Source: Candidatus Kerfeldbacteria bacterium (GTDB lineage Bacteria > Patescibacteriota > Patescibacteriia > UBA9570 > XYC2-FULL-38-9). Taken from it: a stretch of 64,000 bases of DNA. Positions 2,910-52,054 of the stretch are shown piece after piece. The stretch is taken from positions 129,185-193,184 of the forward strand of contig JBDRKW010000020.1 of NCBI GenBank assembly GCA_043813585.1, read 5' to 3'. Both the position numbers and the translations under genes were made by a program. Numbering within the stretch: the stretch's first letter is position 1; each line of letters starts with the position of its first letter. The notes beneath the pieces were generated by a model. It was given only the letters and a program-made list of their open reading frames with translations. It had not been told where the DNA came from and did not search any database.

Positions 2910-3962
2910 TTGAATATGTTCAATAATCTATTCGGTTCATTATCCAAAGATCTTGGCATTGATATCGGTACTGCCAACACCCGTGTCTACGTAAAAGACA
3001 AGGGTATTGTTGTGAATGATCCGTCAGTTGTTGCCATTAATACCCGCAACGACCAGATCATAGCGGTCGGGCAGGAAGCCCGTCAGATGATCGGCAAGAC
3101 GCCTCCGCATATCATAGCTTCGCGGCCATTGGTTGACGGCGTTGTTTCTGATTTCGAAGTAGCCGAGAAAATGCTGAAGTACTTCATTGATAAGGTGCAT
3201 CGAGAGACATTTTCCGTCATCCCGCGGCCGCGAGTCGTTATTTCCATACCCCTGGACGTTACAGAGGTGGAGCGCAAAGCTGTCGAAGACGCAGTTATGA
3301 GTGCAGGCGCGCGCGAAGTGTTTCTCATTGAAGAACCAATGGCGGCCGCAATAGGTTCGCGCGTTCCGATTGAGGATTCAACCGGTCACATGATTGCGGA
3401 TATTGGTGCCGGTACGACATCTATCGCAGTCATCTCTCTCGGAGGCATCGTTTCCTGGCGGTCGATGCGACAGGCAGGAGACGAGTTAAATAAGAATATC
3501 ATCAATTATATTCGCGACCATTTCAATATTCTTCTGGGTGACAGAACGGCGGAAGATGCAAAAATGATGATCGGCACGGCGCTTGAGGATGATGAAGTGC
3601 TTGAGGCGAAAGTACGCGGACGCGATATGATCTCCGGGTTGCCGCGTGAAATTGTCATTACCAGTAATCATCTTCGTGAAGCCACGGCCCGCTCCATTAA
3701 TGCGATGGTCGATAATATCAAGTTGGCGATTGAGGCGACGCCACCGGAATTGGTTGCTGATATTTATGAAAAGGGGATATTGCTCTCAGGCGGGACATCT
3801 CTTCTGCGACACCTGGATAAAAAGATCTCAAATGAAATTTCAATACCGGTAAGCGTCGTGGATGATCCTCTGACTGCAGTTGTCCGCGGTACCGGGATCG
3901 TCCTGGAGGATATTGACGCGGCGAAGGAACTGTTTCTTACATCCCCGTCAGATCTCGAATAA
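2910..3962 (+). CDS. mreB: Rod shape-determining protein MreB (actin homologue)
   Basis: DLGIDIGTANTRVYV phosphate-1 motif, an actin-fold ATPase profile throughout, 350 aa. Confidence 0.9.
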   Translation: MNMFNNLFGSLSKDLGIDIGTANTRVYVKDKGIVVNDPSVVAINTRNDQIIAVGQEARQMIGKTPPHIIASRPLVDGVVSDFEVAEKMLKYFIDKVHRETFSVIPRPRVVISIPLDVTEVERKAVEDAVMSAGAREVFLIEEPMAAAIGSRVPIEDSTGHMIADIGAGTTSIAVISLGGIVSWRSMRQAGDELNKNIINYIRDHFNILLGDRTAEDAKMMIGTALEDDEVLEAKVRGRDMISGLPREIVITSNHLREATARSINAMVDNIKLAIEATPPELVADIYEKGILLSGGTSLLRHLDKKISNEISIPVSVVDDPLTAVVRGTGIVLEDIDAAKELFLTSPSDLE

Positions 3963-3970
3963 CGCTTCAT

Positions 3971-4795
3971 ATGAAGTTTGAGCCACTGAAGTACCTGCGG
4001 TCAAAGACATGGATAGCGCTTTCACTCTGTGTACTCGCGCTTTTTTTGCACTACACAAATTTGGCGCGACCGTTTGAAAATATTCTTATCCGAATGATCC
4101 AGCCGGTCCAGGCTGCCGTATTCAAGGTGAGCCAACTGGATACCATCAGTGGAGTATCAGATGCCGAGTACGGTGGCATGACGCATGACGAACTGGTTGA
4201 AGAAAATAAACAGCTGCGCGATCAGGTAAATAACTTACGCGTTGACAATGCGCATCTTCGAACGCTTGTGGATGATATAACACTACTGAAAGAGCAAGTG
4301 GATTTCCTTGAAAAACGCTCTTTTGCATCAGTGACCGCAAAAGTGACCTCCCGCTCGACAGAAACGCTCTCTCAAACGCTCATTATTAACCGCGGCAGTG
4401 AAGATGGCGTGGCAGTAGGATTGCCGGTAATCGCTGACAATGGAATTGTCGTCGGCACGATAGCAGTTGCGGATCCATACTCAGCAGAAGTACTGTTAAT
4501 CACCAGTTCGGACTCGCTCATCAGCGGAATTGTACAAAACGAGGAACGGAGCCAGGGTATCTTAAAAGGAGAGCATAATATCTCTCTTGTAATGGATTAC
4601 ATTCCGGAGCCTGATTCAATAAAACCGTCTCAATCAGTTGTGACAAGCGGAGCGGATCCGAGCATCCCTAAAGGGCTCGTTATTGGTGAGATTCAGGAGG
4701 TGATTCAGGAGCCGGGATCATTGTTTCAGCGCGCAGCCATTCTGCCGTATTTTGACCCCGCTGCCATGACCATCGTTTCAGTATTGCTACCATAA
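3971..4795 (+). CDS. mreC: Rod shape-determining protein MreC
   Basis: N-terminal TM followed by a coiled coil (NKQLRDQVNNLRVDNAHLRTLVDD), then a beta-rich domain. Position immediately after mreB. Confidence 0.8.
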   Translation: MKFEPLKYLRSKTWIALSLCVLALFLHYTNLARPFENILIRMIQPVQAAVFKVSQLDTISGVSDAEYGGMTHDELVEENKQLRDQVNNLRVDNAHLRTLVDDITLLKEQVDFLEKRSFASVTAKVTSRSTETLSQTLIINRGSEDGVAVGLPVIADNGIVVGTIAVADPYSAEVLLITSSDSLISGIVQNEERSQGILKGEHNISLVMDYIPEPDSIKPSQSVVTSGADPSIPKGLVIGEIQEVIQEPGSLFQRAAILPYFDPAAMTIVSVLLP

Positions 4796-5340
4796 TGCGA
4801 AACTATCTCATTGAACTATGGTGGGTAATTGCGCTAGTACTTCTCGCCGTCATACAAATATCGTTCATTTCAAGCTCGATCCTGCTGCATTACGGAATGC
4901 AAGCTGTGCTTGTTGCTGCAATTATGGTTGCAGCGTATGAACGACCTATGCGGGCACTTTTTATAGCGTCCATTGCCGCGTATATCATGGATCTCAATTC
5001 GGCGTTGCCGTTTGGTATTGTCTTAATTGCCACTGTCGGCGGAGTCGTGCTGTTCCTCTTTTTGAGGCAGAATGTCTTTAAAAATCGTGCACTGCACTCG
5101 CTTGTCATAGGAATGTGTGCGGCGACAATTGCATACCATCTTCTGTTTTTCATGGGGGTCATTTTCTCGCAGTGGTCCGGCACGGTGGAACTATCTGCAT
5201 TTCAATCCCTGGAGTACATCCGTTTTGCGGGCATACAAACGCTTTCACATGCCGTTATCGGCATTATTCTTTATTATGCGATTCAGGTGAGCATCAGGCT
5301 TACTCCGGCAGTGGCTAACCGCAGAAAATATGTCGCGTAA
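4795..5340 (+). CDS. mreD: Rod shape-determining protein MreD (polytopic membrane protein)
   Basis: 181 aa, entirely hydrophobic with 5-6 TM helices. Start overlaps the mreC stop. Called from its position between mreC and PBP2. Confidence 0.55.
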   Translation: MRNYLIELWWVIALVLLAVIQISFISSSILLHYGMQAVLVAAIMVAAYERPMRALFIASIAAYIMDLNSALPFGIVLIATVGGVVLFLFLRQNVFKNRALHSLVIGMCAATIAYHLLFFMGVIFSQWSGTVELSAFQSLEYIRFAGIQTLSHAVIGIILYYAIQVSIRLTPAVANRRKYVA

Positions 5341-7273
5341 GAATCCATTCGAGATCTACGAGGCAGACAACAAGAAGGGAAGTATGCGGACCGGATCGAT
5401 GTCCGGGACTATTATCGATTGTGTCCCTCCGAATCAGCCGGTTCACGGGGAACAGATGAAAAAATCTGCAATGCAGTACTCTTCCCGCAACGCAGTTATC
5501 GTGGCTGTGCTGATGCTTTTTATCATATCAACGCGCGCGTTTTATCTGCAGATACTACAGAACGAACGCTATATCAATCAAGCGGAAGGCAACAGGACCC
5601 ATACAACAGTCATTAAAGCCCTTCGCGGCGTTGTGTATGATCAGAACGGGGTGCCTCTGGTTAGGAACATTCCAAGTTTTCGCTTGATGATAACGGCGCG
5701 GGAGTTACCGCATCGCAGTGATCAGGATTATGAACAGGTGCTGGAATCAATCCAAAGTATATCTGACCTTGGCGACGATGAGTTTAATGAACGGCTGCTC
5801 CGGTCCTTTCAGTCCGGCCAGCCTGTAGAGTTGCGAACCAATATTTCATATAATGACGCGTTACCTCTTATGATTCAAGCACAGCACATTCGCGGTGCGA
5901 GCGTTGAGACGTTCTATGTTCGCGAGTATCTTGCCGGCGAGCCATTTGGCCATATTATGGGGTATATGTCGAAGCTGACAGAAGATGAATACGAAGAAAA
6001 CAGAGATAACGGTTACCAATTCAATGACGATATCGGTAAAACAGGCCTCGAGGCATCCTATGAAGCTGAATTGCGCGGCAGGGACGGCCTTCATAAGAGC
6101 GAGGTTGATTACCGCGGCCGTGAAATTTCAGTCATGTCGGATAGTCGTTCTGAAGCCGGCTTTAATCTGAAACTATCGATAGACATAAATCTCCAGGAAT
6201 ATATCTATAATCTACTTGGCAATGCAGTTGAATTACAGGGGTTGCCCGGAGCAGCTGCCATTGCGCTTGATCCAAATGACGGAAGCGTTCTTGCTCTTGT
6301 GTCGTATCCTTCATTTGACAGCAACGTGTTTACGGGCGGCATATCTCAAAAAGATTATGATGAACTGATCCGGGATGAGAAAAATCCTCTTTTTAACAGA
6401 TGCATCGCCGGTACCTATCCGTCAGGATCCGTATTTAAACCAGTTGTTGCCGCCGCTGCTCTGGAGGAAGGCGTCATAACCGCGAGCACGTCCGTATTCA
6501 GCAGTGGAGGCATACAAATTGATCAGTATTTCTACCCTGATTGGAAAGCAGGCGGCCACGGGGACACAAATGTTATTAAAGCTCTTGCAGAATCAGTAAA
6601 TACCTTTTTTTATCTTGCCGGGGGCGGCGACAACGAAACAACGACAGGTCTCGGCGTTGAGCGCATCACCGGCTACGCGAAGCAATTCGGCTTATCGGAG
6701 CCGTCAGGCATTGATCTTGCCGGAGAGCAGAGTGGATTCCTGCCATCGAAAGCATGGAAGGAGGAATACAAAGATGAGCAGTGGTATATTGGCGATACCT
6801 ATCATCTCGCAATCGGCCAGGGCGACATCCTAGCCACTCCGATACAAATTGCTAATTATACGGCTGCGTTTGCCAATGGCGGGACATTGTTCCGTCCGCA
6901 TATTGTACATTCAATTACCACCCAAAACGATGAACTTGTACGGGATATTGAGGCAGATCCTTTGAGCACGAGTGTAGTTTCTGCGCAAACAATACAGACG
7001 GTTAGGCGCGGACTGCGCGAAGCCGTGTTAACAGGCAGCGCGAAGCTGCTTCAAAGCCTCCCTGTTTCAAGTGCCGGGAAAACCGGTACTGCGCAGTTTG
7101 GAGACGAAGAAAAGACGCATTCCTGGTTTACGGCGTTCGCGCCATATGAAAAACCTGAAATTGTCATCACTGTACTTGCAGAGGAAGGCGGGGAAGGCAA
7201 TGAGACGGCGCTGCCACTTGCACAATCCATTCTTCAGTACTATTTTTCACCTCCGGAAATCGCGGTAGAATAA
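5330..7273 (+). CDS. mrdA: Penicillin-binding protein 2 (elongasome transpeptidase)
   Basis: N-terminal TM, PBP dimerisation domain, and the transpeptidase motifs SVFK (GSVFKPVV), SxN and KTG (SAGKTGTAQF). Last gene of the mre operon. Confidence 0.85.
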   Translation: MSRKNPFEIYEADNKKGSMRTGSMSGTIIDCVPPNQPVHGEQMKKSAMQYSSRNAVIVAVLMLFIISTRAFYLQILQNERYINQAEGNRTHTTVIKALRGVVYDQNGVPLVRNIPSFRLMITARELPHRSDQDYEQVLESIQSISDLGDDEFNERLLRSFQSGQPVELRTNISYNDALPLMIQAQHIRGASVETFYVREYLAGEPFGHIMGYMSKLTEDEYEENRDNGYQFNDDIGKTGLEASYEAELRGRDGLHKSEVDYRGREISVMSDSRSEAGFNLKLSIDINLQEYIYNLLGNAVELQGLPGAAAIALDPNDGSVLALVSYPSFDSNVFTGGISQKDYDELIRDEKNPLFNRCIAGTYPSGSVFKPVVAAAALEEGVITASTSVFSSGGIQIDQYFYPDWKAGGHGDTNVIKALAESVNTFFYLAGGGDNETTTGLGVERITGYAKQFGLSEPSGIDLAGEQSGFLPSKAWKEEYKDEQWYIGDTYHLAIGQGDILATPIQIANYTAAFANGGTLFRPHIVHSITTQNDELVRDIEADPLSTSVVSAQTIQTVRRGLREAVLTGSAKLLQSLPVSSAGKTGTAQFGDEEKTHSWFTAFAPYEKPEIVITVLAEEGGEGNETALPLAQSILQYYFSPPEIAVE

Positions 7274-7334: not shown

Positions 7335-7802
7335 ATGGAACAGAAGACCATCTACATCACAGAGGAGGGCTTAAAAAAGCTCAAAGACGAGCTGCACGGC
7401 TTGAAAACCGTTAAGCGCAAGGAGATCGCGGAGCGTATACAGGAAGCGAAGGAATTGGGCGACCTCTCTGAAAACGCCGAATATATTGAAGCTAAGGAAG
7501 AGCAGGGGTTTATCGAATCCCGCGTATTGGAGCTGGAGCAAATGATCAAGAATGCAGAAGTCATATCACATCCGACAAACGACGACATCATCCAGATTGG
7601 ATCTGCATTTACCGCCACGAGCGACGCAGGCCTGACTGTTTCATTTTCTATTGTTGGCTCATCTGAGGCCGACCCTTCAAAGAATCTCATTTCCAACGAA
7701 TCACCGCTTGGCCAGGCATTTCTTGGCCACAAAACGGGCGAATCAGTAACTGTTGTTACGCCAAAAGGCGATACGGTCTACACAATCGAATCCATCAAAT
7801 AG
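7335..7802 (+). CDS. greA: Transcription elongation factor GreA
   Basis: 155 aa, N-terminal coiled coil (ITEEGLKKLKDELHGLKT...REIAERIQEAKELGDLSENAEY) and C-terminal FKBP-like domain. Confidence 0.9.
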   Translation: MEQKTIYITEEGLKKLKDELHGLKTVKRKEIAERIQEAKELGDLSENAEYIEAKEEQGFIESRVLELEQMIKNAEVISHPTNDDIIQIGSAFTATSDAGLTVSFSIVGSSEADPSKNLISNESPLGQAFLGHKTGESVTVVTPKGDTVYTIESIK

Positions 7803-7803
7803 C

Positions 7804-9288
7804 ATGACGTTGCCAGAAAGCGAAAGCGAACTCCGAAAGAAGAAAGTCGGGGCGCTTCGCAAAAAAGGAATAAATCCCTATCCATCCAAGGCTGAACACA
7901 GCAGTAGTGTTGGTCTTTTTATTGACATGTTCGGTGACCATGAAAAGAAAGGCGATACGGTCATACTCAGCGGACGAGTCATGCTCATGAGAGCGCACGG
8001 AAAAATCACATTTGCGCATGTGGCCGACGAGACAGGGAAAATTCAGGTTGTTTTTGCCAAACAGGATATGGGCGACGATGCATATGCATTTGTTGCCGAG
8101 TATATCGATGTAGGTGATATAGTGCAGGTAAGCGGGACGGCGTTTGTCACAAAAAAAGGTGAGCAGTCGCTTCTTGTACAGCAGGCGACACTTCTCTCAA
8201 AAGCAATCAACCCACTGCCTGATAAATGGCATGGAATCAAAGACGAAGAGGCGCGATACCGAAAGCGCTATCTGGATATGCTGATGAATCCGGAACTTCG
8301 GGATATGGTTCGCAAAAAAAGCATGTTTTGGAACGCTGTTCGGGATTTTTTACAGAATGAAGGATTTCTTGAGGTTGAAACCCCTGTCCTGGAGGCTGTT
8401 GCCGGAGGTGCTGATGCCCAACCGTTTGTTACACATCATAATGCATTGGATATCGATCTATTTTTGCGCATCTCGATGGGCGAACTGTGGCAAAAACGGT
8501 TAATGGTAGCCGGATTTGATAAAACATTTGAGATCGGAAGGCAATTCCGCAATGAAGGGATCAGTCCTGAGCATCTGCAGGATTACACGCAAATGGAATT
8601 TTATTGGGGCTACGCTGATTATGAAATGGGAATGGAACTGGTTGAGCGCATGTATAAGGAATGCATCAATAAAACATTCGGTACGCTGAAGTTTTCAATC
8701 AAAGGTATGGACGTCGACTTGTCCAAAAAATGGGACCGCATTGATTACGTTGACGCGTTAAAAAAAGCATACAAACTTGACGTGTTGCAGGCGACGGAAA
8801 ATGAACTGCGGACTGCATGCAACAACGCCGGTTCAAGTGCTGACGGCGTCGTGGGCAAAGGAAGGCTCATGGATCTTTTATGGAAGCAGGTAAGAAAAAC
8901 AATCACCGGACCCGCGTTCCTGGTCAACCACCCGGTTGAAGTGTCGCCGCTTGCCAAACGAAAAGAAGACAATCCGGCATTGGTTGAACGATTTCAGGTC
9001 ATTATCGCCGGCAGTGAGCAGGGAAACGGGTATTCAGAGCTGAACGATCCCATCGATCAGCGTCAGCGTTTCGAAGAGCAGACAGAATTGAGGGAAGCCG
9101 GGGATACGGAAGCGCAAATGCATGATGAAGATTTTGTGGAGGCGCTGGAATACGGCATGCCGCCGACATGCGGATTTGGTATGAGCGAGCGGCTGTTTTC
9201 ATTCCTCATGGATAAGCCGATTCGGGAATGCGTAACATTTCCTCTCTTACGGCCAAAACAAGACGATAACAAAGACAATAATGCTTGA
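7804..9288 (+). CDS. lysS: Lysyl-tRNA synthetase (class II)
   Basis: Start chosen at MTLPESE because the ORF otherwise overlaps greA. OB anticodon-binding domain plus a class II core (RNEGIS..HNPEFT-like, GGADAQPFVTHHNALD, FEIGRQFRNEG). Confidence 0.9.
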   Translation: MTLPESESELRKKKVGALRKKGINPYPSKAEHSSSVGLFIDMFGDHEKKGDTVILSGRVMLMRAHGKITFAHVADETGKIQVVFAKQDMGDDAYAFVAEYIDVGDIVQVSGTAFVTKKGEQSLLVQQATLLSKAINPLPDKWHGIKDEEARYRKRYLDMLMNPELRDMVRKKSMFWNAVRDFLQNEGFLEVETPVLEAVAGGADAQPFVTHHNALDIDLFLRISMGELWQKRLMVAGFDKTFEIGRQFRNEGISPEHLQDYTQMEFYWGYADYEMGMELVERMYKECINKTFGTLKFSIKGMDVDLSKKWDRIDYVDALKKAYKLDVLQATENELRTACNNAGSSADGVVGKGRLMDLLWKQVRKTITGPAFLVNHPVEVSPLAKRKEDNPALVERFQVIIAGSEQGNGYSELNDPIDQRQRFEEQTELREAGDTEAQMHDEDFVEALEYGMPPTCGFGMSERLFSFLMDKPIRECVTFPLLRPKQDDNKDNNA

Positions 9289-10567
9289 TATTAAATATAT
9301 TCGCGACCATGCGGAAGATGTGAAGCTGAATGCAACGCATCGCAACATTGATGTTGATATTTCTCTCCTGCTGGAACTCGATGAGCAGCTGCGCAGCCAT
9401 GTACAGCAGGTAGAGCAGCTGCGTGAGGAACGAAATACGAACGCAGAAGCGCTGAAAGGAAGCGAAGATAAAGAATCAAAGGTAGCAAAGGAGCATATTC
9501 AGCGCGGCAAGGAACTGAAAAAGGAAATTGCTGCCAGTGAAGCCGAAATCGAAAAACTTCGCGCAGAATTGCAGCCGCTGCTGGAAGCTGTTCCCAACCT
9601 GACGCATCCGGGCGTGCCTGTCGGCAAAGATGATGCTGATAATAAAGAACTCAAACAGATCGGCGCAATCCCGGAATTTGATTTCGAGATCAAGGACCAT
9701 GTCGAATTAGGCAAATCGCTCGATATCCTTGATTTTGACCGCGGTTCGGAAGTCGCCGGTTCTGGCTTTTACTTTGTGAAGAACGAAGCGGCAGTCATGG
9801 ACCTTGCACTCCAGCAATTTGCGTTCGACCGCTGCCGCGCCAACGGATTCACTCCGATGATCACGCCGGACATTGCATACCAAGAAATCCTGCGCGGTAC
9901 AGGCTTCAATCCAAGGGGGGATGAAAAGCAGATCTATAATATTGAAGGGACGGATTTATCCCTTATTGCAACATCAGAAATCACCGTTGCCGGCTATTTC
10001 AAAGACCGCATCTTCAAGAAGGGCGAACTGGATGCGCCGATAAAAATCGTCGGCCTCTCGCACTGTTTCAGGACAGAGGCGGGTGCGTACGGCCGTGAAT
10101 CACGCGGATTATATCGCGTCCACCAATTCACAAAAGTGGAGATGTTCATTATTTGCAAACCGGAAGATTCGGAAGCGCAGCATGAACATCTGCTGGAGAT
10201 GGAAGAAGAAATATTGCAGGAACTGAAAATCCCGTATCGCGTTGTTGACTGCTGCACCGGCGACCTGGGCGGGCCGGCGTTCAGAAAATACGACATTGAA
10301 GCATGGATGCCGTTCAAGGATTCCTGGGGTGAGGTTACCTCAACATCAAATTGTACGGACTACCAGGCGCGCAGGCTGAACATCAAATATGAAGCAGGTT
10401 CCGGAAAGAAGGAATACGTACACACACTTAACGGAACAGCCGTAGCGCTATCGCGCGTTCCAATTGCAATCATAGAAAACTTCCAACAAAAAGACGGGAC
10501 AGTCGCTATTCCGGATGCACTCCAACCGTATACGTTCGGCGTGACGGCAATTGAATTGAAGAGCTAG
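9281..10567 (+). CDS. serS: Seryl-tRNA synthetase
   Basis: MLDIKYIRDH start, N-terminal coiled-coil arm, class II motifs (GFYFVKNEAA, HCFRTEAG, GTAVALSR). Confidence 0.9.
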   Translation: MLDIKYIRDHAEDVKLNATHRNIDVDISLLLELDEQLRSHVQQVEQLREERNTNAEALKGSEDKESKVAKEHIQRGKELKKEIAASEAEIEKLRAELQPLLEAVPNLTHPGVPVGKDDADNKELKQIGAIPEFDFEIKDHVELGKSLDILDFDRGSEVAGSGFYFVKNEAAVMDLALQQFAFDRCRANGFTPMITPDIAYQEILRGTGFNPRGDEKQIYNIEGTDLSLIATSEITVAGYFKDRIFKKGELDAPIKIVGLSHCFRTEAGAYGRESRGLYRVHQFTKVEMFIICKPEDSEAQHEHLLEMEEEILQELKIPYRVVDCCTGDLGGPAFRKYDIEAWMPFKDSWGEVTSTSNCTDYQARRLNIKYEAGSGKKEYVHTLNGTAVALSRVPIAIIENFQQKDGTVAIPDALQPYTFGVTAIELKS

Positions 10568-11607
10568 TATCCGCGCTTGATGCGCCGTGCAGTTTCAATC
10601 ACTTTTGTCATTGTATATTTCCACGAAAGGGGATAGTCCTGGCAGTGGAGCAGGTCAAGCTGGCTTCCGCCAAATCCCATTTTGAATTTAGAAAGTCCTA
10701 TCCACGGATGCTTCCGCTTGAGGAAAGTGGATACCTGTTTTGATTCGGGAACGATGCCCCAAAAATTATACTGCGTACACCCTCGCTCTTTCGCTTCCTT
10801 GATTGCTTCCCATTGAATCAGGTATGAGGCGGGAATGCGGTTATATTCGGATAACGAAGCTCCATGATGATAGGAAGCCATATCGCCGTAATACATCATT
10901 ATGGCCGCAGAAATGGGCTTATTTTCGTATTCACCGATAAATACCTCCACTTGACCGTCTGTGGCAAATGCACGCACCTGAGCGCGAAAATAGTCGTCTG
11001 TGTAGGGCACAAATCCATGGCGCTGAACTGTTTCCTGGTGAATATCGATAAATGCCTGGACAGATTCGTCACTGGTACTTTTCTTTATCACCACACCGTC
11101 CTTGCTTGCGCGACGAACAAGATTGCGCATGGTTTTTCGCATGCCTTTCATCAGTTCATCTTCGGTGCCCGATATGTCCATCCACCAGATATTTTCCGCA
11201 AGCATGTGAATGGGCGCGTCTTTCCACCCAATGGAATGATAGAGTTCCTTGTTCTCGGGTGAGTTCATGATAAACGGCGATGAGCGTAGAAAATCTGCGT
11301 TCAGTTTCTTACCAAAATCTTTCACGTACGTCGTGAATTCGTTCAGATGCTTCCATTCGTCGCGCCTAAACACAGGGCCATAGGGCATAAACAGATAGGT
11401 GCCCCGCTTAGCTTTCACGAGCGTTGCGAATGCAACTCCGATGAGATCGTCACCCTTAAGGATCTCAAAAAGATATGGGTCCTCACCAACTTTCTCGTGA
11501 AGCTGCTTCATGTTCCATGACTGCAGAAAAGGCGGCCGAGAGACGCTCATTAGGAACTGTTCCCAGCGTTCCTTCGATTCTGATTCTCGAATGATAATGT
11601 CGGACAT
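10564..11607 (-). CDS. FemAB-family aminoacyl-tRNA-dependent peptidoglycan peptidyltransferase (FemX/MurM-like)
   Basis: 347 aa. Sequence pattern of the FemAB family (PF02388-like GNAT duplication): PPFLQSWNMKQ..., YLFMPYGPV, SYLIQWEAIKEAKERGCTQYNFWG. Its stop codon overlaps the serS stop as CTAG. Confidence 0.75.
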   Translation of the reverse strand: MSDIIIRESESKERWEQFLMSVSRPPFLQSWNMKQLHEKVGEDPYLFEILKGDDLIGVAFATLVKAKRGTYLFMPYGPVFRRDEWKHLNEFTTYVKDFGKKLNADFLRSSPFIMNSPENKELYHSIGWKDAPIHMLAENIWWMDISGTEDELMKGMRKTMRNLVRRASKDGVVIKKSTSDESVQAFIDIHQETVQRHGFVPYTDDYFRAQVRAFATDGQVEVFIGEYENKPISAAIMMYYGDMASYHHGASLSEYNRIPASYLIQWEAIKEAKERGCTQYNFWGIVPESKQVSTFLKRKHPWIGLSKFKMGFGGSQLDLLHCQDYPLSWKYTMTKVIETARRIKRGY

Positions 11608-11609
11608 AC

Positions 11610-12872
11610 CTATTGGTAGAATTCTTTAATAGTTTCAATCACATCGTGAGCGTCCTGCTCAGTCGTCTGTATATTTGTCGGCAGATTTACGACCGTTCTT
11701 GCCGCTGCTTCAGCCACGGAGCAGCTGCCTTTCGCATAATGAACAGCCTCCATGTTCGATCCCGGCGGTGCAATAACCGGGTCATACCAGTCACCCAGCA
11801 ATATGCCGCGTTGCTTCGCAAAGGCAACAAGTTCATTGCGCCGTTTTACTTGGATTGTATAGCGCAGCAATGCTGATTTGGCATTCGGCTGAAATACTGG
11901 CAACTGAATGCCTGGGGCGTCATTAAGTTTGCTCGCATAGAGGTCAGCCAGCCGCTGCCTATGTTCCTGCATTTCCTCAAGGACACTCATCTGTGCCACT
12001 GCCGCAGCTGCCATTGCATTTGGCAGGCGGTAGCCCTTTTGCTGCTTCGCTTCCTTTTTTTCTGCTGCAAATAAAACAAGCGGGAATAAACGAATTTTTT
12101 TTGAAACAGCAATAATAATCTTCCCAAGCGAACCGACGTAATAAAAGCGGATTCCCAGAGCAAAGAGCAGGGGATGCAGCAGCCGCTGTTTAATCCAAAT
12201 ATGCGACGGAAACCGCAAACCGAGCCAGTAGTTATTCAGATGCTGCGCGATCTCAGCATCATTTGTAATTGCCATCCCGCCGGACACCGCTGAAATCACC
12301 TTATCGCGTCCGAATGAAAACATCGCGGCCTGGCCAAATGTACCGACGAGCATGCCGTTAACAGTCGCTCCAAGAGAATGTGCGCAATCCTCAATAAGAG
12401 TAACGCCGTGTGAAGTGCAAATCTCCTGAATGCGCTCTATCTGCGCCGGCTGTCCAAACGTATGCTGCACGATGACAGCGCGTATCTTCTTCGACTGGTC
12501 AAGCTTCTTTTCCAAATCAACCGGATCAAGGTTGTAGGTATTGTCAATATCCACATACACCGGCTTGCCATTGGCAGCAATGATGGCATTCGGCACTACA
12601 ACACAGGTAAATGACTGCATTGCCACCTCATCACCTTCCTGTAGATCAAGCGCATCGAGTAATGCATACAATGCTATCCGGCCCGAGCTGAATGATCGCG
12701 CAAAAGAGACTGAAAATTTGCGCTTGAACAAATCATCAAGTTCAGATAGCGCTCGGCCTTTGCGCCACATAAACCAGCGATACGGGTTGATAAGCCAATA
12801 CAATGCGCGTTTCACGTCCTGAGGGCGCGCGTTAGGTGATAAATGAGGCGATATTGGTCGTTTTGCTGGCAT
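11610..12872 (-). CDS. DegT/DnrJ/EryC1/StrS-family PLP-dependent sugar aminotransferase with hydrophobic insertion
   Basis: GDEVAMQSFTCVVVPNAI, DIDNTYNLD, HTFGQP, SFGRDKVIS (PLP lysine) and SGGMAITND are typical of DegT. An approximately 60-aa hydrophobic insert (FPSHIWIKQRLLHPLLFALGIRFYYVGSLGKIIIAVSKKIRLFPLVLFAA) replaces the usual short linker. Confidence 0.75.
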   Translation of the reverse strand: MPAKRPISPHLSPNARPQDVKRALYWLINPYRWFMWRKGRALSELDDLFKRKFSVSFARSFSSGRIALYALLDALDLQEGDEVAMQSFTCVVVPNAIIAANGKPVYVDIDNTYNLDPVDLEKKLDQSKKIRAVIVQHTFGQPAQIERIQEICTSHGVTLIEDCAHSLGATVNGMLVGTFGQAAMFSFGRDKVISAVSGGMAITNDAEIAQHLNNYWLGLRFPSHIWIKQRLLHPLLFALGIRFYYVGSLGKIIIAVSKKIRLFPLVLFAAEKKEAKQQKGYRLPNAMAAAAVAQMSVLEEMQEHRQRLADLYASKLNDAPGIQLPVFQPNAKSALLRYTIQVKRRNELVAFAKQRGILLGDWYDPVIAPPGSNMEAVHYAKGSCSVAEAAARTVVNLPTNIQTTEQDAHDVIETIKEFYQ

Positions 12873-12876
12873 GATA

Positions 12877-14508
12877 TTATTTTTCAGTGCCGGTCAGGTA
12901 GGAAAAGATCGCATCCTGGACACGTCCCTCAATAAGCACGACATCATCTGAGGTAAAATTTGATAACACGCTACTGATCAATTTTTTTGGCCTGTCGTTC
13001 ACGATAATGTTGCCTGCCTGCATGCCGCCCTGCTTTGCAGCATCGCGAAGCGGTTTTGCAAAATCCTTCTTCGTGATAATGAGCTGGTCCACGGTCTTGG
13101 CAAGATAGGTACCGACATTTCGATGGTGCTTGTCCGTTTCAACGCCAAGCTCCTGCATTCCCGGGGTGATGACTATTTTTTTCTTGTCCTCGAACTGGGT
13201 AAGATAGTCTACAGCCGCCATAAACCCATCCGGATTCGAATTGTAATGGTCGTCGATCACGTAGAAGTGGTTTCGACCGTTCAATAAGTGCATTGTCCCT
13301 TCTACAGGCTTCAGTTTTTTAATGCCCTCAGCAATATCCTCAATAGACATGCCCAGGTGATCTGCAGCAGTTGCCGCAGCCAGAATAGAGGAGATAACCT
13401 GCTCGCCATGGAGTGATGTTCGCACAACAGCAGAACGCTTTCCTATGTGAAGCATAAATTGAACTGCGTGGGGCTCAACTTCAATATCTGTCGCATAGGT
13501 ATGCGCCACATCCTGAGTAGAAAACAATTTTAGTTTCGCCTCTGTTTGTTTTGATGCCTCAACGCATGAAGAAATATCTTTATTTACAACTGCAAGGCCT
13601 GTTTTCGGCAGCGACGCAAGTAGCTCCGCTTTTGTATTGCGGATGGCCTCCAGGCTGCCGAACAACGCAAGATGCTGCTCATTGATTGCCGTTAAAATTC
13701 CGATAATCGGTGACGTCAGGTCGCAAATTGCATCAATTTCACCCGGGCGATACGCCCCCATCTCGACAATAAATACTTCATGTTCATCCGTCAGCGAACT
13801 AAGTATGGTCTGCGCCACGCCAATATCAACATTGACATTCTTGGGCGTTGAAATGGTTTTAAACCGTTGATCAAGGATGGTTTGCAGAAATTGCTTGGTT
13901 GATGTTTTTCCGTAACTACCTGTAATACCGATGACTGTCGGGCTCAGCGATGCGAGCTTTTCCTTTGCACTTCGAATAATGCGCTGTTTCTGAACGGAGG
14001 CCAGCGGCTGGAAAAGCAGGACAATAAACGTTGCCGTCAAAGGAATGAGCAAAACCGCAATAATCATCGATAAAAAAGATCCGGTGTAAATACCAATGAC
14101 ATACGCGATTATAATGGAAATAAGCGGTGAGAGAATCGACAGCAACATAGCCTTCGACGTCCATGTAGGAAATACCCGCCAGCGAAGGTAGCGCACCAGC
14201 TCCAGCAGTAAAAACGCAAAAAATAAATAAACAAGCGTGTTGAACAGCAACGAGTTTGCGATATCGATGTACACACTATCCCAGTAGGCAACCAGCCAAA
14301 TGATTAAAAATGCAATTTCAATAAACGTCCAGACATTGAGAGTCGCACGTTTTCCGGAACGGGTTGTCAAAAAATCAACCATGCGATCGGTGCGATACTC
14401 CTTGAGTTGCCAGATATAAATCCAATAAACATTTTTCAGGCCAATGAGCAGCAGGAAGATCAGGATTTGAATCGTTAAAATGAATATTGTCAGAAATTCA
14501 CCATCCAT
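12877..14508 (-). CDS. Membrane-anchored Mur-ligase family protein (MurF-like central and C-terminal domains; N-terminal domain replaced by about 5 TM helices)
   Basis: Residues 1 to about 175 are polytopic membrane. Then come a Mur ligase P-loop (IGITGSYGKTSTK), a central domain, and a MurF-like C-terminal domain (IDDHYNSNPDGFMAAVDYL, ITPGMQELG). Confidence 0.75.
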   Translation of the reverse strand: MDGEFLTIFILTIQILIFLLLIGLKNVYWIYIWQLKEYRTDRMVDFLTTRSGKRATLNVWTFIEIAFLIIWLVAYWDSVYIDIANSLLFNTLVYLFFAFLLLELVRYLRWRVFPTWTSKAMLLSILSPLISIIIAYVIGIYTGSFLSMIIAVLLIPLTATFIVLLFQPLASVQKQRIIRSAKEKLASLSPTVIGITGSYGKTSTKQFLQTILDQRFKTISTPKNVNVDIGVAQTILSSLTDEHEVFIVEMGAYRPGEIDAICDLTSPIIGILTAINEQHLALFGSLEAIRNTKAELLASLPKTGLAVVNKDISSCVEASKQTEAKLKLFSTQDVAHTYATDIEVEPHAVQFMLHIGKRSAVVRTSLHGEQVISSILAAATAADHLGMSIEDIAEGIKKLKPVEGTMHLLNGRNHFYVIDDHYNSNPDGFMAAVDYLTQFEDKKKIVITPGMQELGVETDKHHRNVGTYLAKTVDQLIITKKDFAKPLRDAAKQGGMQAGNIIVNDRPKKLISSVLSNFTSDDVVLIEGRVQDAIFSYLTGTEK

Positions 14509-15398: not shown

Positions 15399-16589
15399 AT
15401 GAAAAAAATACTTGGCTCGTACAGGAAAAAGAGCTCCATCCAACGCTTTAAGAATGAAGGGGAGTACCAGACCAGCCGGTATTCAGCCCGTTCTTTCTCT
15501 CCTTCACAGCAGGCAGTGAAAAACAGGCCGAAGCGAGAATGGATGAGCGGAAACACCTGGGCAGGCATTGGGATTGTACTCCTGTTGATTGTCTGTGCCT
15601 GGTATTTTGGCTTTCAATCAAATCGTTTCACTATTGAAGAGGTTCAGGTTGATGGTTTAACCTTCTTAAATGCGGAAGATGTTTCTGCATCTGTCAGTGG
15701 CTATATGAATTCCATGATCCTGTGGGTCTTGCCGCGCAACACCTATTGGACGCTAAATCCAAACAGTGTCATTCGCCATATCGAAACAACATACGAAGCA
15801 ACTGCATCGTTCGATTCTATTGCAGTTTCAAAGGACTTTCCGAATAAGATCGTTATAACGATAAAGGAACGCATTCCAAGTGTTACATGGGTAACGAAAG
15901 ACCAAACAAAGACGGAACACTTCTATGAAATCGACCGGAACGGAATAGTTACAAGGCAGGTGGCGAGTTTTGCAGATACGAATACATCATATCCGAGGAT
16001 ACGGGATGATAACCGTCCATGGCTGGAGGAGGGGTGGGCAATTATTTCAAAGGAATATATTGATTTCCTTCTTGCAATCCACGAATCATTTTACGACGCT
16101 ACTGGTGTTGCAGTAGACTCCTATGTCCTTTTCAAGATAGAGTGTACCGAACAGGAATATGTGGCAGAAAAAATATTCCAGCAGGAGATTCTGGATTCAG
16201 AAAATGAAGAGTTTAAGAATAGGAAGCGAGAGATCCAAGAGCAGTTCCAGGCCGGTGCGTTAACCATAGATGAATCGCTGGATGCGCTCGAATCAATCAA
16301 GCGTGAAGAATTTGAATCTCAAGATGATCTCCAGGATGAAGCATTTGAAAAAATAGAGTGGGAGACGGTCGATGTGCCTGTTGAGTGCGATTTGGTGAAA
16401 GTAGCGCGAGAATTGCGCGTTGTGGCCCATGCATCAGAACATAAGACATTTGAGGTCTATATGGATATGTCGGTTGAACCTGCGATCATTTTAGAGAACG
16501 CAAACGTCGTCATGCATAATCAAGTAGACGACTTGAACCATATACAGTATATAGATCTGCGCGTACCTGATAGGGCGTACATAAAATAA
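15399..16589 (+). CDS. FtsQ/DivIB-like cell division protein (TM plus POTRA) with acidic C-terminal extension
   Basis: Single TM (WAGIGIVLLLIVCAWYFGF) followed by a POTRA-like block (IEEVQVDGLTFLNAEDV...KIVITIKERIPSVTWV), then an E/D-rich tail. Confidence 0.55.
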   Translation: MKKILGSYRKKSSIQRFKNEGEYQTSRYSARSFSPSQQAVKNRPKREWMSGNTWAGIGIVLLLIVCAWYFGFQSNRFTIEEVQVDGLTFLNAEDVSASVSGYMNSMILWVLPRNTYWTLNPNSVIRHIETTYEATASFDSIAVSKDFPNKIVITIKERIPSVTWVTKDQTKTEHFYEIDRNGIVTRQVASFADTNTSYPRIRDDNRPWLEEGWAIISKEYIDFLLAIHESFYDATGVAVDSYVLFKIECTEQEYVAEKIFQQEILDSENEEFKNRKREIQEQFQAGALTIDESLDALESIKREEFESQDDLQDEAFEKIEWETVDVPVECDLVKVARELRVVAHASEHKTFEVYMDMSVEPAIILENANVVMHNQVDDLNHIQYIDLRVPDRAYIK

Positions 16590-16714: not shown

Positions 16715-18040
16715 CTATTGAAGATAATTCATTGGGTTGGTAGGAATACCGTTCACACGTATTTCAAAATGAAGATGAGGACCAGTTGAGTACGATCCTG
16801 CACCGGGAGTACCGGGCATTCCGCCGCTACATCCGATCATTTGTCCCCTACTGACGTATTGGTCTGGCTGTACAGTGACGCAACTAACGTGCCCGTAGAC
16901 GCTTGCAAGGCCGTTTCCATGCACAAGCATGATATAAGCATACCGTGAAGTGCCGTCAAAACTTGCAATGCCGACATACCCTGATGCAGCCGCATACACG
17001 TTTGAACCCATTGGCGTTGCGACGTCCATGCCTGAGTGTTCAAACCACCGCCTAAACGGATAATCCTGGCAGTGAAAACCGCAAGTGATTGTCCGCGAAT
17101 CAACCGGCCATGCAAACCGAACAACGCCGTCAAGCAAATCTTGCTCTTCATCAGTAATGCTGTCATTTGAATCATCCCCGTCATTCAGCCTATCCTGAAC
17201 TTCTGTGCGTATATTGATGATCTTCTCCTGTACGCTGCTCTCTAATGCGGAAATCTGGCCTTCAATACTTGATTGTTCATCCTTAACAGTATCGAGCAGT
17301 AATTGAAATTTGTCTTCAGACAGCTTCGTCTCTGCCAGCAGCTGCGCCTTGAATGTTTCCTCCCCTTCCAGGTTGTCTTCATTTAATTCAAGGTTGGTCT
17401 TTTTCAGCGCTATCTCTGCTTTTTTCTCTCCCAATTCAGAGCGCCGGGTCTTTAATTCGGTTCGAACATTCTGAAGCGTATCCAGCGTATCCTGCATGCT
17501 GCTCTGCACGGAGTTCGTATATTCCATGTCTGAGAAGAACTCCGAAAGCGTGCCGTTGCCAAATGTAATTTCGAGCGTCGTGTGCTGGTCATAGGAATAG
17601 ATGCTGCGCAATAGATCGCTGATCATCTCTTTACTCCGATCAATATCTATCTCTGATTCATCAATCTGCTCCTTAAGAACTTCAATTTCAAGCTGCAATA
17701 CATCCAGTTCTATCTCGGCACGGGCGATGTCGATGCGCGTTTCTTCTATCTTATCGTCTAATAATGACACCTGGCTTTGCAATGTGAGTATTTCGTTTTG
17801 TTTCGCCTTAATATTGCTTTCATATACGGCACGCTTCTCTTCAAGCTCCCGAACTTCCGCTGCACGTCTTTCAATTTCAGAGTTCAACTCGACTATATTG
17901 CTATCTGAATTCATTTCATTGTGGACGATCTCTTCAAATTCATCATCACTAATGCGAGCAAATACGGGAACTGCCAAAACAACTCCGATCACGACCGGGA
18001 TAATGATGCTGTACCTCCAAATGTTCGTTGTTTGACTCAT
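16715..18040 (-). CDS. M23 (LytM-type) metallopeptidase with N-terminal coiled coil (EnvC-like)
   Basis: N-terminal TM, long coiled coil, C-terminal M23 motifs (HxxxD region; GHVSCVTVQPDQYVSRGQMIGCSGG; GPHLHFEIRVNG). Confidence 0.8.
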   Translation of the reverse strand: MSQTTNIWRYSIIIPVVIGVVLAVPVFARISDDEFEEIVHNEMNSDSNIVELNSEIERRAAEVRELEEKRAVYESNIKAKQNEILTLQSQVSLLDDKIEETRIDIARAEIELDVLQLEIEVLKEQIDESEIDIDRSKEMISDLLRSIYSYDQHTTLEITFGNGTLSEFFSDMEYTNSVQSSMQDTLDTLQNVRTELKTRRSELGEKKAEIALKKTNLELNEDNLEGEETFKAQLLAETKLSEDKFQLLLDTVKDEQSSIEGQISALESSVQEKIINIRTEVQDRLNDGDDSNDSITDEEQDLLDGVVRFAWPVDSRTITCGFHCQDYPFRRWFEHSGMDVATPMGSNVYAAASGYVGIASFDGTSRYAYIMLVHGNGLASVYGHVSCVTVQPDQYVSRGQMIGCSGGMPGTPGAGSYSTGPHLHFEIRVNGIPTNPMNYLQ

Positions 18041-19531
18041 CTATTTTAGTTTTTCAATCGCCTGCTCGATTCTATTGAGTGATTCTTCCTTTCCTAATAT
18101 CTCGGCCAGTTCAAATGGCGGCGGTGATTTCTCCATTCCGGATAACGCTAGCCGCGTTGGCCAAAGAACATCGCCGTTCTTAAGTCCGTTATCGGAAATC
18201 CATTCCAGAATACTCTTTTCCAGACTTACAGCAACATATTCACTGCTATCAACCTTCTCCAATAACTGATAGATCCCTTTCAGTGCTTCTATTGTACCAT
18301 TTTTGTCTGATTTTTTCCATATCAGCTTGTCCCCTTCGTAGTCGGGCATATGGAGAATCTCATACGAATTAGCCACGTCTAAGAGCGTTTTTGAACGTTC
18401 TTTGAGGTAATGGATAACGGACTCCTGCTTATTATCATCAAAATCTCCAAACCACTGAAGAAAAGCTTCATACGTTCCTCTATAGTCGGATTCCATCTCA
18501 CTCAATGATTTTATGCGTCGTAAAATATCATAGCGATCCAATTTTTGCAGGTACTGCTGGTTCATCCAATCTAATTTGTCTGTGTCAAAAACAGGATTCG
18601 GTGCATTAATTTGAGCAATGTCAAACCGCTGTTCCAACTGTTCAAGCGTAAACAACTCTTCAGTCGTCTTAGGATTCCATCCAAGTAATGCTATAAAATT
18701 TACTATTGCCTCGGGAAGATACCCTTTGTCGCGGAATGACAGTAATGACATCTCTCCCTGCCTCTTGCTCATCTTCCCCCCTTTACTGGAAAGAAATAAT
18801 GACAAATGCACCCATTCTGGTACATCCCATCCAAATGCCTGATACAGTAAAATGTGTTTTGGTGTGGACGGCAGCCACTCCTCTCCCCTGATAATATGCG
18901 TCACGCCCATAAGATGGTCGTCTACGACATTTGCCAGATGATACGTCGGAAAGCCGTCGGATTTTAACAATACCTGATCGTCGATATCCTTTGCATTAAA
19001 TGTTACATCTCCGCGGACTCGATCTTTAACAACAATCTCCCCTTCGTCAGGGACAGATAATCGCACCGTGTGTTCATCACCGTTCTTCAGGCGCCTTTTA
19101 ACTTCATCTTCAGCCAGTTTATTGCAACGCTTATCATATTTAGGCGCTTCGTGGCATTCTTGTTGCTTTGTTCGAAGTTCGTCTAATTCTTCCTTGCTGC
19201 AAAAACAATAATACGCTGCCCCTCCTTTGACTAACTGATCAATATGCTCCTTGTATATATCTATGCGTTCACTTTGAATATACGGACCGTAATCGCCGCC
19301 TTTAATCGGTCCTTCGTCCCAATCAATGCCAAGCCAGGTCAGGCCGTCGAGGATGGCATCAAGGCTGCCCTTAACTGTTCTGGCAGCGTCAGTATCTTCA
19401 ATGCGCAAAATAAACGATCCTCCATTTTTGCGCGCCCAAAGATACGCATAGAGTGCCGACCTAATATTGCCGATATGCGGTTCACCGGTTGGCGATGGTG
19501 CAAAGCGTGTTCTGACTGTCTCTGAAATCAT
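18041..19531 (-). CDS. gltX: Glutamyl-tRNA synthetase
   Basis: RFAPSPTGEPHIGNIRSALY (HIGH), KMSKR, 496 aa. Confidence 0.9.
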   Translation of the reverse strand: MISETVRTRFAPSPTGEPHIGNIRSALYAYLWARKNGGSFILRIEDTDAARTVKGSLDAILDGLTWLGIDWDEGPIKGGDYGPYIQSERIDIYKEHIDQLVKGGAAYYCFCSKEELDELRTKQQECHEAPKYDKRCNKLAEDEVKRRLKNGDEHTVRLSVPDEGEIVVKDRVRGDVTFNAKDIDDQVLLKSDGFPTYHLANVVDDHLMGVTHIIRGEEWLPSTPKHILLYQAFGWDVPEWVHLSLFLSSKGGKMSKRQGEMSLLSFRDKGYLPEAIVNFIALLGWNPKTTEELFTLEQLEQRFDIAQINAPNPVFDTDKLDWMNQQYLQKLDRYDILRRIKSLSEMESDYRGTYEAFLQWFGDFDDNKQESVIHYLKERSKTLLDVANSYEILHMPDYEGDKLIWKKSDKNGTIEALKGIYQLLEKVDSSEYVAVSLEKSILEWISDNGLKNGDVLWPTRLALSGMEKSPPPFELAEILGKEESLNRIEQAIEKLK

Positions 19532-19548: not shown

Positions 19549-20295
19549 TTATTCCTTTCTACGCAAGCCTCGAAAAAGCAGAAGTGAAATCGGAAACACA
19601 ACAACGGCATTAACAATTCGGATTATCCGGTTGGGCTGCTGCAGCAGGCGCCATAACCATTCGAGATGAACGGCTTGAATCCATCGTGGCGCGCGCGTTG
19701 CCGTTCCCGACCAGAAATCAAACGTCCCTCCAACTCCAATCCCCACAGCCGAAGGGCCCGCCGAATCCAAATGCTTACCTAGCCAGAGTTCCTGCTCGGG
19801 AAAACCAAGCCCAACCAACAGCAGATCTGCCGATATTCCCGTCGGCGGATCGTTAAGCCATTGATCCTTCATTATGGAATGCGCAGAAACAACCGCATCG
19901 GGCCATCGGGTTTTCATTGCAGCTATAATATCCTGTTCACCTGAAAGTCCATCCTTTCTGATAACGCAATGAACCGACAATTTTTTTGCATGTGCGATAT
20001 CCATAAGATGCCCTGCCACATCAACACCGCGAACGGTATTTGTTATGCGGCTGAACAGCCGAATTCCAAATCCATCCGCAACAGAGAGGTCTGCCTTTGA
20101 AAGAACCGCCGCAAAGTCCGGATGGTTCCGCGCATGCAACAAAATCTCAGGGTTTGGCGTGATAATGAGCTTCATGCAGTCACTGTCCACAATCCATTTA
20201 TTGATCCTATCCATTGCTCCGGGTAACGAAACATTATCAATGGGGATCCCAAAAATACTAATGCGTTTTTCTGTATTCATAGCTGGAACCATCAT
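19549..20295 (-). CDS. WecB/TagA/CpsF-family glycosyltransferase (UDP-ManNAc(A) transferase for lipid-linked cell-wall polymer linkage unit)
   Basis: ISIFGIPIDNVSLPGAMDRI...KLIITPNPEILL and VGLGFPEQELW profile of GT26. Confidence 0.75.
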   Translation of the reverse strand: MMVPAMNTEKRISIFGIPIDNVSLPGAMDRINKWIVDSDCMKLIITPNPEILLHARNHPDFAAVLSKADLSVADGFGIRLFSRITNTVRGVDVAGHLMDIAHAKKLSVHCVIRKDGLSGEQDIIAAMKTRWPDAVVSAHSIMKDQWLNDPPTGISADLLLVGLGFPEQELWLGKHLDSAGPSAVGIGVGGTFDFWSGTATRAPRWIQAVHLEWLWRLLQQPNRIIRIVNAVVVFPISLLLFRGLRRKE

Positions 20296-30596: not shown

Positions 30597-30599
30597 GGG

Positions 30600-31730: not shown

Positions 31731-31740
31731 GCTCCTCCTC

Positions 31741-45062: not shown

Positions 45063-45081
45063 GTATGTTTATTGAATTTTA

Positions 45082-46675: not shown

Positions 46676-46677
46676 AA

Positions 46678-48421: not shown

Positions 48422-48473
48422 GCTGTTTTGCCCAATATGGGCTTAGTATACCAGACTTTGCCCCTATAATCGA

Positions 48474-49418: not shown

Positions 49419-49427
49419 ATGCGTATA

Positions 49428-51058: not shown

Positions 51059-51063
51059 AGTGG

Positions 51064-51981: not shown

Positions 51982-52054
51982 ACTATTACAATGTGTTAAT
52001 AATCGAATGGTCCGCGTCTATTGTACAATTTCTAACGCTGATGCACAACATATT

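Follow-up and report, generated by a model that had tools for sequence, protein, structure and literature searches.

Does a Mur ligase that carries a bundle of membrane helices where its substrate-binding N-terminal domain should be serve a new reaction, or is it a familiar enzyme in an unfamiliar form? The question is raised by a stretch of 64,000 nucleotides from a Candidatus Kerfeldbacteria genome (assembly GCA_043813585.1, contig JBDRKW010000020.1, positions 129,185 to 193,184 of the forward strand), hereafter the window, in which one gene encodes a protein that we call TM-MurF, after its transmembrane (TM) N-terminal part. In peptidoglycan synthesis, MurF (EC 6.3.2.10) uses ATP to ligate the terminal dipeptide, normally D-Ala-D-Ala, onto MurNAc-tripeptide. 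A preliminary description of the window had proposed that the uridine diphosphate (UDP)-substrate domain of this ligase was replaced by a membrane domain, and saw in this a swap implying a membrane-bound acceptor such as lipid II or, alternatively, a new specificity. The replacement itself is borne out by our analysis. Neither implication finds support in our results. TM-MurF belongs to one large family; in relatives it occupies the murF slot of cell wall gene clusters and is the sole MurF-like gene in those clusters. From sequence comparison and gene order we propose that TM-MurF is the organism's housekeeping MurF in a membrane-integrated form, which would add the terminal dipeptide at the membrane surface, and we give this reading a probability of about 0.62.

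The ligase core is of the MurF type

Pfam recognises the middle and C-terminal domains of a Mur ligase in TM-MurF (Table 1). The motifs previously singled out in the protein are all present: the P-loop at residues 194–205 and, with coordinates checked, IDDHYNSNP at residues 418–426 and ITPGMQELG at residues 447–455. Against the NCBIfam murF model TIGR01143, residues 179–528 align to model positions 63–405 of 418 with a score of 260.1 bits. The models of other ligases score far lower, at 83 bits for murD, 81.5 for murE, 70 for murC, 51 for cyanophycin synthetase, 50 for mpl, 30 for folC and 25 for MurT, in agreement with the earlier assignment of the C-terminal domain to the MurF type. The solved structures nearest in sequence are also MurF enzymes, from Acinetobacter baumannii (4qdi, E 1e-39) as well as Escherichia coli, Pseudomonas aeruginosa and Thermotoga maritima. 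When the AlphaFold model was compared with solved structures using Foldseek, the top matches were again all MurF (4qf5, E 6e-28; 3zl8; 4cvm), with a template modelling score (target TM-score) of ~0.72 over ~375 columns; these columns cover the middle and C-terminal domains only and show 25–28% identity to the solved MurFs.

The catalytic residues are retained across the family. In an alignment of 111 full-length homologues (34–62% identity), G197, S198, G200, K201 and K205 of the P-loop are invariant, and the P-loop as a whole, E249, H279, E295 and the DxxYNxNP residues D419, Y422, N425 and P426 are invariant or nearly so. Judged by its sequence, the core of TM-MurF is an intact MurF-type ATP-dependent amide ligase, nearest to MurF among the Mur ligases. 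A 100% identical protein is on record from a Candidatus Kerfeldbacteria metagenome-assembled genome, where it is annotated as ‘MurF’.

A conserved five-helix domain stands in the place of domain 1

The N-terminal part of the protein is of a different nature. Kyte-Doolittle hydropathy picks out five hydrophobic stretches from residue 5 to residue 170, and an AlphaFold model built on the 111 homologues places helices at residues 2–35, 59–80, 87–110, 118–142 and 144–188, with a predicted local distance difference test (pLDDT) score of 96.1 and a predicted template modelling (pTM) score of 0.92. Both results confirm the earlier view that residues 1 to about 175 are hydrophobic and form five TM helices. 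The last helix, 144–188, continues unbroken in the model up to the first β-strand ahead of the P-loop. We found no Pfam match within residues 1–190, no Pfam or NCBIfam match within residues 1–178 and no counterpart to positions 1–62 of TIGR01143; the N-terminal domain 1 of canonical MurF was not found, residues 1–188 being modelled as an all-helical membrane bundle. The loops rich in lysine and arginine (residues 26–56, 107–119 and 169–190) all lie on one side of this bundle, and those on the opposite side are tiny and uncharged. The N-terminus is therefore predicted to face out and the ligase domain to be cytoplasmic, a predicted topology that implies that the membrane part has essentially no external domain.

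Conservation in the membrane domain is concentrated on the cytoplasmic face. Five residues are invariant in the same alignment (W33, Y38, R42, P114 and T117) and a further six are at least 90% conserved (Q34, K36, E37, G52, K119 and P168). All but P168 map either to TM1, at its cytoplasmic end, or to the loop between TM3 and TM4. Members from outside the Candidate Phyla Radiation (CPR) have the same length and architecture as the CPR form, carrying LQLE(S/G)Y for WQLKEY and KKPLVxTxRxKR for PxxTxK, and the glutamine and tyrosine are invariant there too. A profile-profile comparison of the CPR and non-CPR N-domains using hhalign gave a probability of 98.4% (E 5.7e-15) over 176 columns, from which we conclude that they are one old family. 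The membrane domain is under selection, as seen in its invariant cytoplasmic-loop residues, its single family across phyla and its confident, rigid model. It is a conserved domain, more than a loose anchor.

TM-MurF is widespread

More than 3,400 homologues of TM-MurF were identified. Nearly all of the top 120 are 500–575 residues long and align over 94–99% of the query, including the membrane domain, and for this reason the fusion architecture is not a chance event. A profile of the membrane domain alone matched 1,282 cluster representatives (clustered at 50% identity) at E ≤ 1e-3 among 1.84 billion proteins. Among the 150 matches listed, the domain starts within the first 27 residues in every case; most of these proteins are 480–585 residues long, and about a quarter are shorter (150–450 residues) and probably fragments. 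A scan of one genome per species found at least 596 loci, the best 80 of which were retrieved for context. By their record titles, the CPR holders among these 80 are Staskawicz-, Nealson-, Yanofsky-, Wildermuth- and Roizmanbacteria, Peribacteria, Saccharibacteria and Paceibacterota. The non-CPR holders are Poribacteria, Clostridia, Bacteroidales, Bryobacteraceae and Solirubrobacteraceae, the Clostridia including the cultured Sedimentibacter acidaminivorans DSM 24004 and Sporosalibacterium faouarense. TM-MurF is widespread and not a one-off swap.

TM-MurF occupies the murF slot of relatives

In total 86 loci were annotated for context, using local phmmer searches seeded with Pfam-verified genes. 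In seven Poribacteria loci the genes run mraW-ftsI-murE-hydrolase-TM-MurF-ddl-mraY, and six of the seven continue through murD-ftsW-murG-murC within the retrieved stretch. The ddl gene that adjoins TM-MurF in non-CPR members passes the curated cutoffs for D-Ala-D-Ala ligase. A Van-type partner ligase, making D-Ala-D-Lac or D-Ala-D-Ser, was considered and rejected, the adjacent Ddl falling far below every Van model cutoff. Three CPR loci (L035, L041 and L055) place a hydrolase-TM-MurF-DegT-FemAB cassette directly before mraY inside the division and cell wall (dcw) operon, with the full order mraW-ftsL-ftsI-murE-murC-murA-hydrolase-TM-MurF-DegT-FemAB-mraY-murD-ftsW-murG-ftsQ-ftsA in L035. The idea that the cassette makes a product other than peptidoglycan was set aside after these dcw-embedded copies turned up.

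At least three dcw genes are visible in 15 of the loci, and in none of these does any other open reading frame score above 38 bits against the ligase core. A second MurF would have shown, because against the same core canonical MurFs score 72–140 bits and a second, shorter CPR form scores ~150 bits. This form, which we call mini-MurF, was found in two Microgenomates loci (L087:8737-9987 and L088:8747-9985), where it fills the murA-[X]-mraY slot instead of the cassette; in MraY, both share 71% identity with L035. The mini-MurFs are 412–416 residues long, 33% identical to the TM-MurF of the window and without an N-terminal domain of any kind, the P-loop lying at about residue 33 and the TIGR01143 match starting at model position 64. 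Closely related genomes thus alternate the two forms in the same slot. This alternation strongly indicates that the cassette provides MurF function, and since a mini-MurF fills the murF slot without domain 1, that domain is evidently dispensable in this clade. TM-MurF and mini-MurF occurred together in none of the 86 loci.

Not all copies are placed in this way. The cassette also lies outside a dcw cluster in loci L001, L003 and L005, and in Clostridia a hydrolase-TM-MurF-ddl triad sits amid housekeeping genes, outside the dcw cluster. L001 is a second Kerfeldbacteria genome, and it repeats the arrangement of an FtsQ-like gene beside the cassette that we observe in the window (Table 1). No other Mur ligase was found within the window.

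The surroundings of the cassette in the window are rich in envelope genes, though the classical dcw cluster is missing from the 64 kb. A full rod-shape set (mreB, mreC, PBP2 and rodA) lies scattered about the cassette, together with genes for a coiled-coil M23 peptidase resembling EnvC and for a glycosyltransferase of the TagA/WecG type (jointly at 2910-7273 (+), 32858-33967 (-), 16715-18040 (-) and 19549-20295 (-)).

Table 1. Coordinates of the TM-MurF cassette, its domains and motifs, and the divergent neighbouring gene; positions count from the first nucleotide of the window.
Feature	Position	Strand	Evidence
TM-MurF, 543 aa, ATG start; N-terminal five-helix membrane domain with MurF-type middle and C-terminal domains	12877..14508	(-)	Open reading frame and translation, Pfam, NCBIfam, AlphaFold, solved-structure matches
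N-terminal membrane domain, residues 1-188; five TM helices, the last a single long helix into the ligase domain	13945..14508	(-)	
Motif WQLKEYRTDR, residues 33-42, cytoplasmic end of TM1	14383..14412	(-)	Conservation in 111 sequences
Motif P-T-W-T-S-K, residues 114-119, cytoplasmic TM3-TM4 loop	14152..14169	(-)	Conservation in 111 sequences
ATP-binding P-loop GITGSYGKTSTK, residues 194-205	13894..13929	(-)	Coordinates checked
Mur ligase middle (ATPase) domain, residues 195-382	13363..13926	(-)	Pfam PF08245 Mur_ligase_M, E 2e-34
Mur ligase C-terminal domain, residues 406-528; holds IDDHYNSNP and ITPGMQELG	12925..13293	(-)	Pfam PF02875 Mur_ligase_C, E 3.8e-15
Partner α/β-hydrolase, 270 aa, soluble; stop codon 1 nt before the TM-MurF start codon	14510..15322	(-)	Pfam Abhydrolase_1
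DegT/DnrJ/EryC1-family pyridoxal phosphate aminotransferase; next downstream in the same operon, CPR-specific companion	11610..12872	(-)	Pfam PF01041, E 5e-66
FemAB-family (FemX-like) peptidyltransferase; last of the four-gene cassette	10564..11607	(-)	Pfam PF02388, E 5e-37
FtsQ-type POTRA protein; dcw-cluster gene, divergent from the cassette	15399..16589	(+)	Pfam POTRA_1

A near-constant partner hydrolase

Within the cassette the closest companion of TM-MurF is an α/β-hydrolase. Its gene lies directly upstream in 71 of the 77 loci for which upstream DNA was available, and the spacing, a median gap of 2 nt and 1 nt in the window, suggests co-expression. The HGWG oxyanion motif and the triad of S110 (within HSxGG), D222 and H250 are invariant in 78 hydrolase sequences, and the protein has no membrane span. 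On the strength of the intact triad the hydrolase is probably catalytically competent, and its gene is probably co-transcribed with that of TM-MurF. In NCBIfam the protein comes closest to the EstV family lipase model, named after a Helicobacter pylori enzyme, at 94 bits for the window protein and 133–145 bits for non-CPR members (equivalog cutoff 300). Among solved structures the nearest, at E ~1e-15, are arylesterases and one entry called simply ‘alpha/beta fold hydrolase’. We did not find the hydrolase in the dcw cluster of the two mini-MurF genomes, L087 and L088, which would tie it to the membrane form and not to the ligase reaction as such.

The downstream genes differ between CPR and other bacteria

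Among the 79 loci compared downstream of TM-MurF, ddl follows in 30, all of them non-CPR, and DegT and FemAB follow in 39 and 41 respectively, all of CPR type. In no case did ddl and DegT occur together. The shift from ddl to DegT and FemAB in CPR may reflect a reshuffling of the operon, with the FemX-like enzyme adding a cross-bridge residue. It may also be that the end of the stem peptide is made differently in these organisms.

Several aminoacyl-tRNA synthetase genes lie around the cassette in the window, encoding LysRS, SerRS, GluRS and a class II enzyme with a Thr/Ala-type SAD domain (7753-10567 (+), 18041-19531 (-) and 40333-42129 (+)). SerRS abuts the FemAB gene; it is found one gene beyond FemAB in L001 and directly upstream of the hydrolase in L005.

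Comparison with known Mur ligases

TM-MurF shares its middle and C-terminal domains and its catalytic motifs with the canonical soluble MurF of E. coli (1GG4), A. baumannii (4QF5/4QDI), T. maritima (3ZL8) and P. aeruginosa (4CVM), and in relatives of the window organism it shares the dcw place, with ddl and mraY as neighbours. The two forms differ at the N-terminus, where canonical MurF has an α/β UDP-binding domain 1 of ~80 residues and TM-MurF a 188-residue five-helix membrane domain. Unlike the canonical enzyme, TM-MurF is predicted to be integral to the membrane and is nearly always accompanied by the probably co-transcribed α/β-hydrolase. Mini-MurF resembles TM-MurF in its MurF-type core, its GSYGKT P-loop, its murA/mraY slot and its lack of canonical domain 1. 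It differs in having no membrane domain, the ~30 residues before its P-loop matching the connecting helix of TM-MurF, in its C-terminal four-cysteine tail and in the absence of an adjacent hydrolase, DegT or FemAB gene.

Two other Mur-type ligases offer parallels. MurT is a Mur ligase homologue without the N-domain that acts on lipid II; with GatD it forms the lipid II isoglutamine synthase. TM-MurF also lacks the canonical N-domain, the lipid II substrate being that of MurT, whereas MurT is a soluble protein that ends in a DUF1727 domain and works with GatD as partner. Membership of the MurT family was rejected, since TM-MurF scores 25 bits against NF052464 (cutoff 800), has no DUF1727 domain and has no GatD gene nearby. 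The poly-γ-glutamate synthase CapB/PgsB with PgsC pairs a Mur-ligase-type amide ligase with a small polytopic membrane component, a functional analogy. Membership was rejected here as well, because no CapB, PgsB or CapC model appears among the Pfam and NCBIfam matches, the core is MurF-type and the context is one of peptidoglycan and not capsule.

A closer parallel comes from the Campylobacterota. According to published work cited in PMC9448923, H. pylori MurF has four N-terminal transmembrane domains. The same enzyme is described as essential for precursor synthesis and as an interaction partner of the membrane protein Csd5 (PMC9507126). It is also reported to co-purify with Csd5, whose own N-terminal transmembrane region promotes the contact. 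The H. pylori gene, HP0740, is 1485 bp long, too short to hold four helices together with canonical domain 1. In Campylobacter jejuni, Cj0795c (murF), Cj0796c (an α/β-hydrolase that is probably essential) and Cj0798c (ddl) are near neighbours (PMC5530802), and cj0795c and cj0798c are listed among the essential genes. The Campylobacterota thus resemble the family described here in their N-terminal TM helices and in a murF/hydrolase/ddl triad like that of the non-CPR loci. They differ in the number of helices, four reported against five in TM-MurF, and in having ddl close by, where the CPR TM-MurF has DegT and FemAB downstream and there is no ddl in the window. Taking together the literature, the gene order and the EstV model as the best, though sub-cutoff, match of the hydrolase, the MurF of H. 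pylori and C. jejuni probably belong to the TM-MurF family.

A membrane-integrated MurF, as already reported for H. pylori, is thus a known but barely characterised kind of enzyme. In a survey of how Mur genes are arranged, published in 2023, MurF is taken to be cytoplasmic and a membrane form goes unmentioned (PMC10214165), and our literature search for a membrane-bound or atypical MurF in CPR returned nothing relevant.

Other features of the window

Three further regions of the window deserve mention. At 44304-56328 (-) lies a de novo pyrimidine block comprising carA, carB, two genes of the aspartate/ornithine carbamoyltransferase family, a dihydroorotase-like amidohydrolase, pyrD with an electron-transfer subunit, and pyrF; the block stands out because, to our knowledge, CPR bacteria are usually without nucleotide synthesis. 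An unusual fusion protein of 487 residues is encoded at 59190-60653 (-), joining an MtrA-like N-terminal region to thymidylate-synthase and PterinBD-DUF4346 domains (Pfam). Two tandem DUF3048 paralogues of 387 and 427 residues are found at 28283-31883 (-), adjoined by a third open reading frame of 387 residues with no Pfam match.

Discussion

We propose that TM-MurF carries out the housekeeping MurF reaction from within the membrane. The ligase core, predicted to be cytoplasmic, is joined to the five-helix membrane domain in the model by a continuous helix of about residues 155–188, and the interface motifs (W33, Q34, K36, Y38, R42, P114, T117 and K119) may take on part of the role of domain 1 by binding the acceptor at its sugar or nucleotide-diphosphate end. 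The active site would be held against the membrane, with UDP-MurNAc-pentapeptide made beside MraY and the morphogenetic machinery, and the hydrolase would probably work with the membrane domain.

Several observations weigh against this proposal. The TIGR01143 score falls under the curated cutoff of 288.6, which we attribute to model positions 1–62 having no counterpart in TM-MurF. In the window the cassette stands outside any dcw cluster, adjoining only the ftsQ-like gene, and no murC, murD, murE, mraY or ddl is found within the 64 kb; a second MurF could lie beyond the window, and it could be of the mini-MurF type that exists in CPR. No ddl occurs within 10 kb of TM-MurF in any of 44 CPR-type loci, so that D-Ala-D-Ala is a presumed donor in CPR. 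The textbook MurF reaction has no place for a hydrolase or esterase that is almost always linked. D-Ala-D-Ala ligation by TM-MurF is a prediction, indirectly supported by the bona fide ddl that adjoins it in non-CPR members.

Could the acceptor be a lipid? MraY would then move MurNAc-tripeptide to undecaprenyl phosphate, and at the inner leaflet TM-MurF would add the dipeptide to the tripeptide form of lipid I or lipid II, with its membrane domain binding the polyprenyl-diphosphate end. The missing UDP-binding domain 1 would fit such a scheme, as would a polytopic domain that exceeds what a single-helix anchor requires and whose invariant residues, basic and aromatic, lie in loops predicted to be cytoplasmic, where the diphosphate headgroup would be. 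MurT provides a precedent on lipid II, and the CPR mini-MurFs lack domain 1 altogether, so that UDP recognition via that domain is evidently dispensable in the clade. However, these same mini-MurFs occupy the dcw slot with no membrane domain, so the loss of domain 1 is not in itself a sign of a lipid acceptor. The conserved loop residues would be equally able to bind UDP, the gene order of TM-MurF before mraY fits the canonical pathway, and no finding here speaks directly for a lipid substrate. We consider a lipid-linked acceptor unlikely.

A broader version of this idea is that TM-MurF and its esterase form a distinct, membrane-coupled way of finishing the stem peptide in seven or more phylum-level groups. 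In this scheme the membrane domain would either bind C55-PP-MurNAc-tripeptide or dock on MraY, the hydrolase would carry out a step outside the textbook pathway, and in CPR DegT and FemAB would replace Ddl to give an end other than D-Ala-D-Ala. This is a tentative suggestion, and we doubt that it is correct in this form.

It is also conceivable that the membrane domain does nothing but localise an ordinary MurF, for example for protein contacts, with no role in substrate binding or catalysis. The interaction of MurF with Csd5 in H. pylori, promoted by a transmembrane region of Csd5, is consistent with such a tether, and the mini-MurF core fills the murF slot with no N-domain at all. Five helices with invariant tryptophan, glutamine, lysine, tyrosine, arginine, proline and threonine residues from CPR to Clostridia exceed the needs of tethering, however; a rigid helix joins the membrane and ligase domains in the model, and the hydrolase goes with the TM form, the dcw clusters of the two mini-MurF genomes examined having none. 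A purely passive tether is improbable on these grounds. The preliminary description had itself raised the related case in which the protein is no more than the organism's own MurF, held by an anchor in the membrane. The MurF part of it most probably holds, given the murF slot of relatives, the lack of any other MurF-like gene in those clusters, the adjacent ddl of non-CPR phyla and the H. pylori literature, but ‘anchor’ is too weak a word for a domain with invariant residues on its cytoplasmic face and a coupling to an esterase gene.

Least probable is a specialised paralogue that builds or modifies another envelope glycopeptide, or a non-canonical stem end, with the housekeeping MurF encoded elsewhere: the cassettes outside the dcw cluster (in the window, L001, L003 and L005, and among housekeeping genes in the clostridial triad), the DegT and FemAB genes that stand in the place of ddl in CPR and are mutually exclusive with it, and the existence of mini-MurF as a second type in CPR would all accommodate it, but wherever dcw clusters are visible TM-MurF is the sole MurF-like gene and sits in the murF slot, the two forms share none of the 86 loci, and the core groups with MurF over any other Mur ligase.

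For the window organism, a housekeeping role for TM-MurF is an ordinary outcome, the cell-wall ligase that would be expected. The interest lies in the family. Textbooks and genomic surveys treat MurF as soluble, and here a large family is predicted to be integral to the membrane. The cytoplasmic-face motifs, the near-obligatory esterase with its intact triad, the exchange of ddl for DegT and FemAB in CPR and the mini-MurFs are all absent from the literature that we searched. If the link to the Campylobacterota is true, the membrane domain and esterase, absent from the E. coli type of MurF, would be relevant to pathogens and possible targets for selective drugs, and they would shed light on the coupling between precursor synthesis and MraY.

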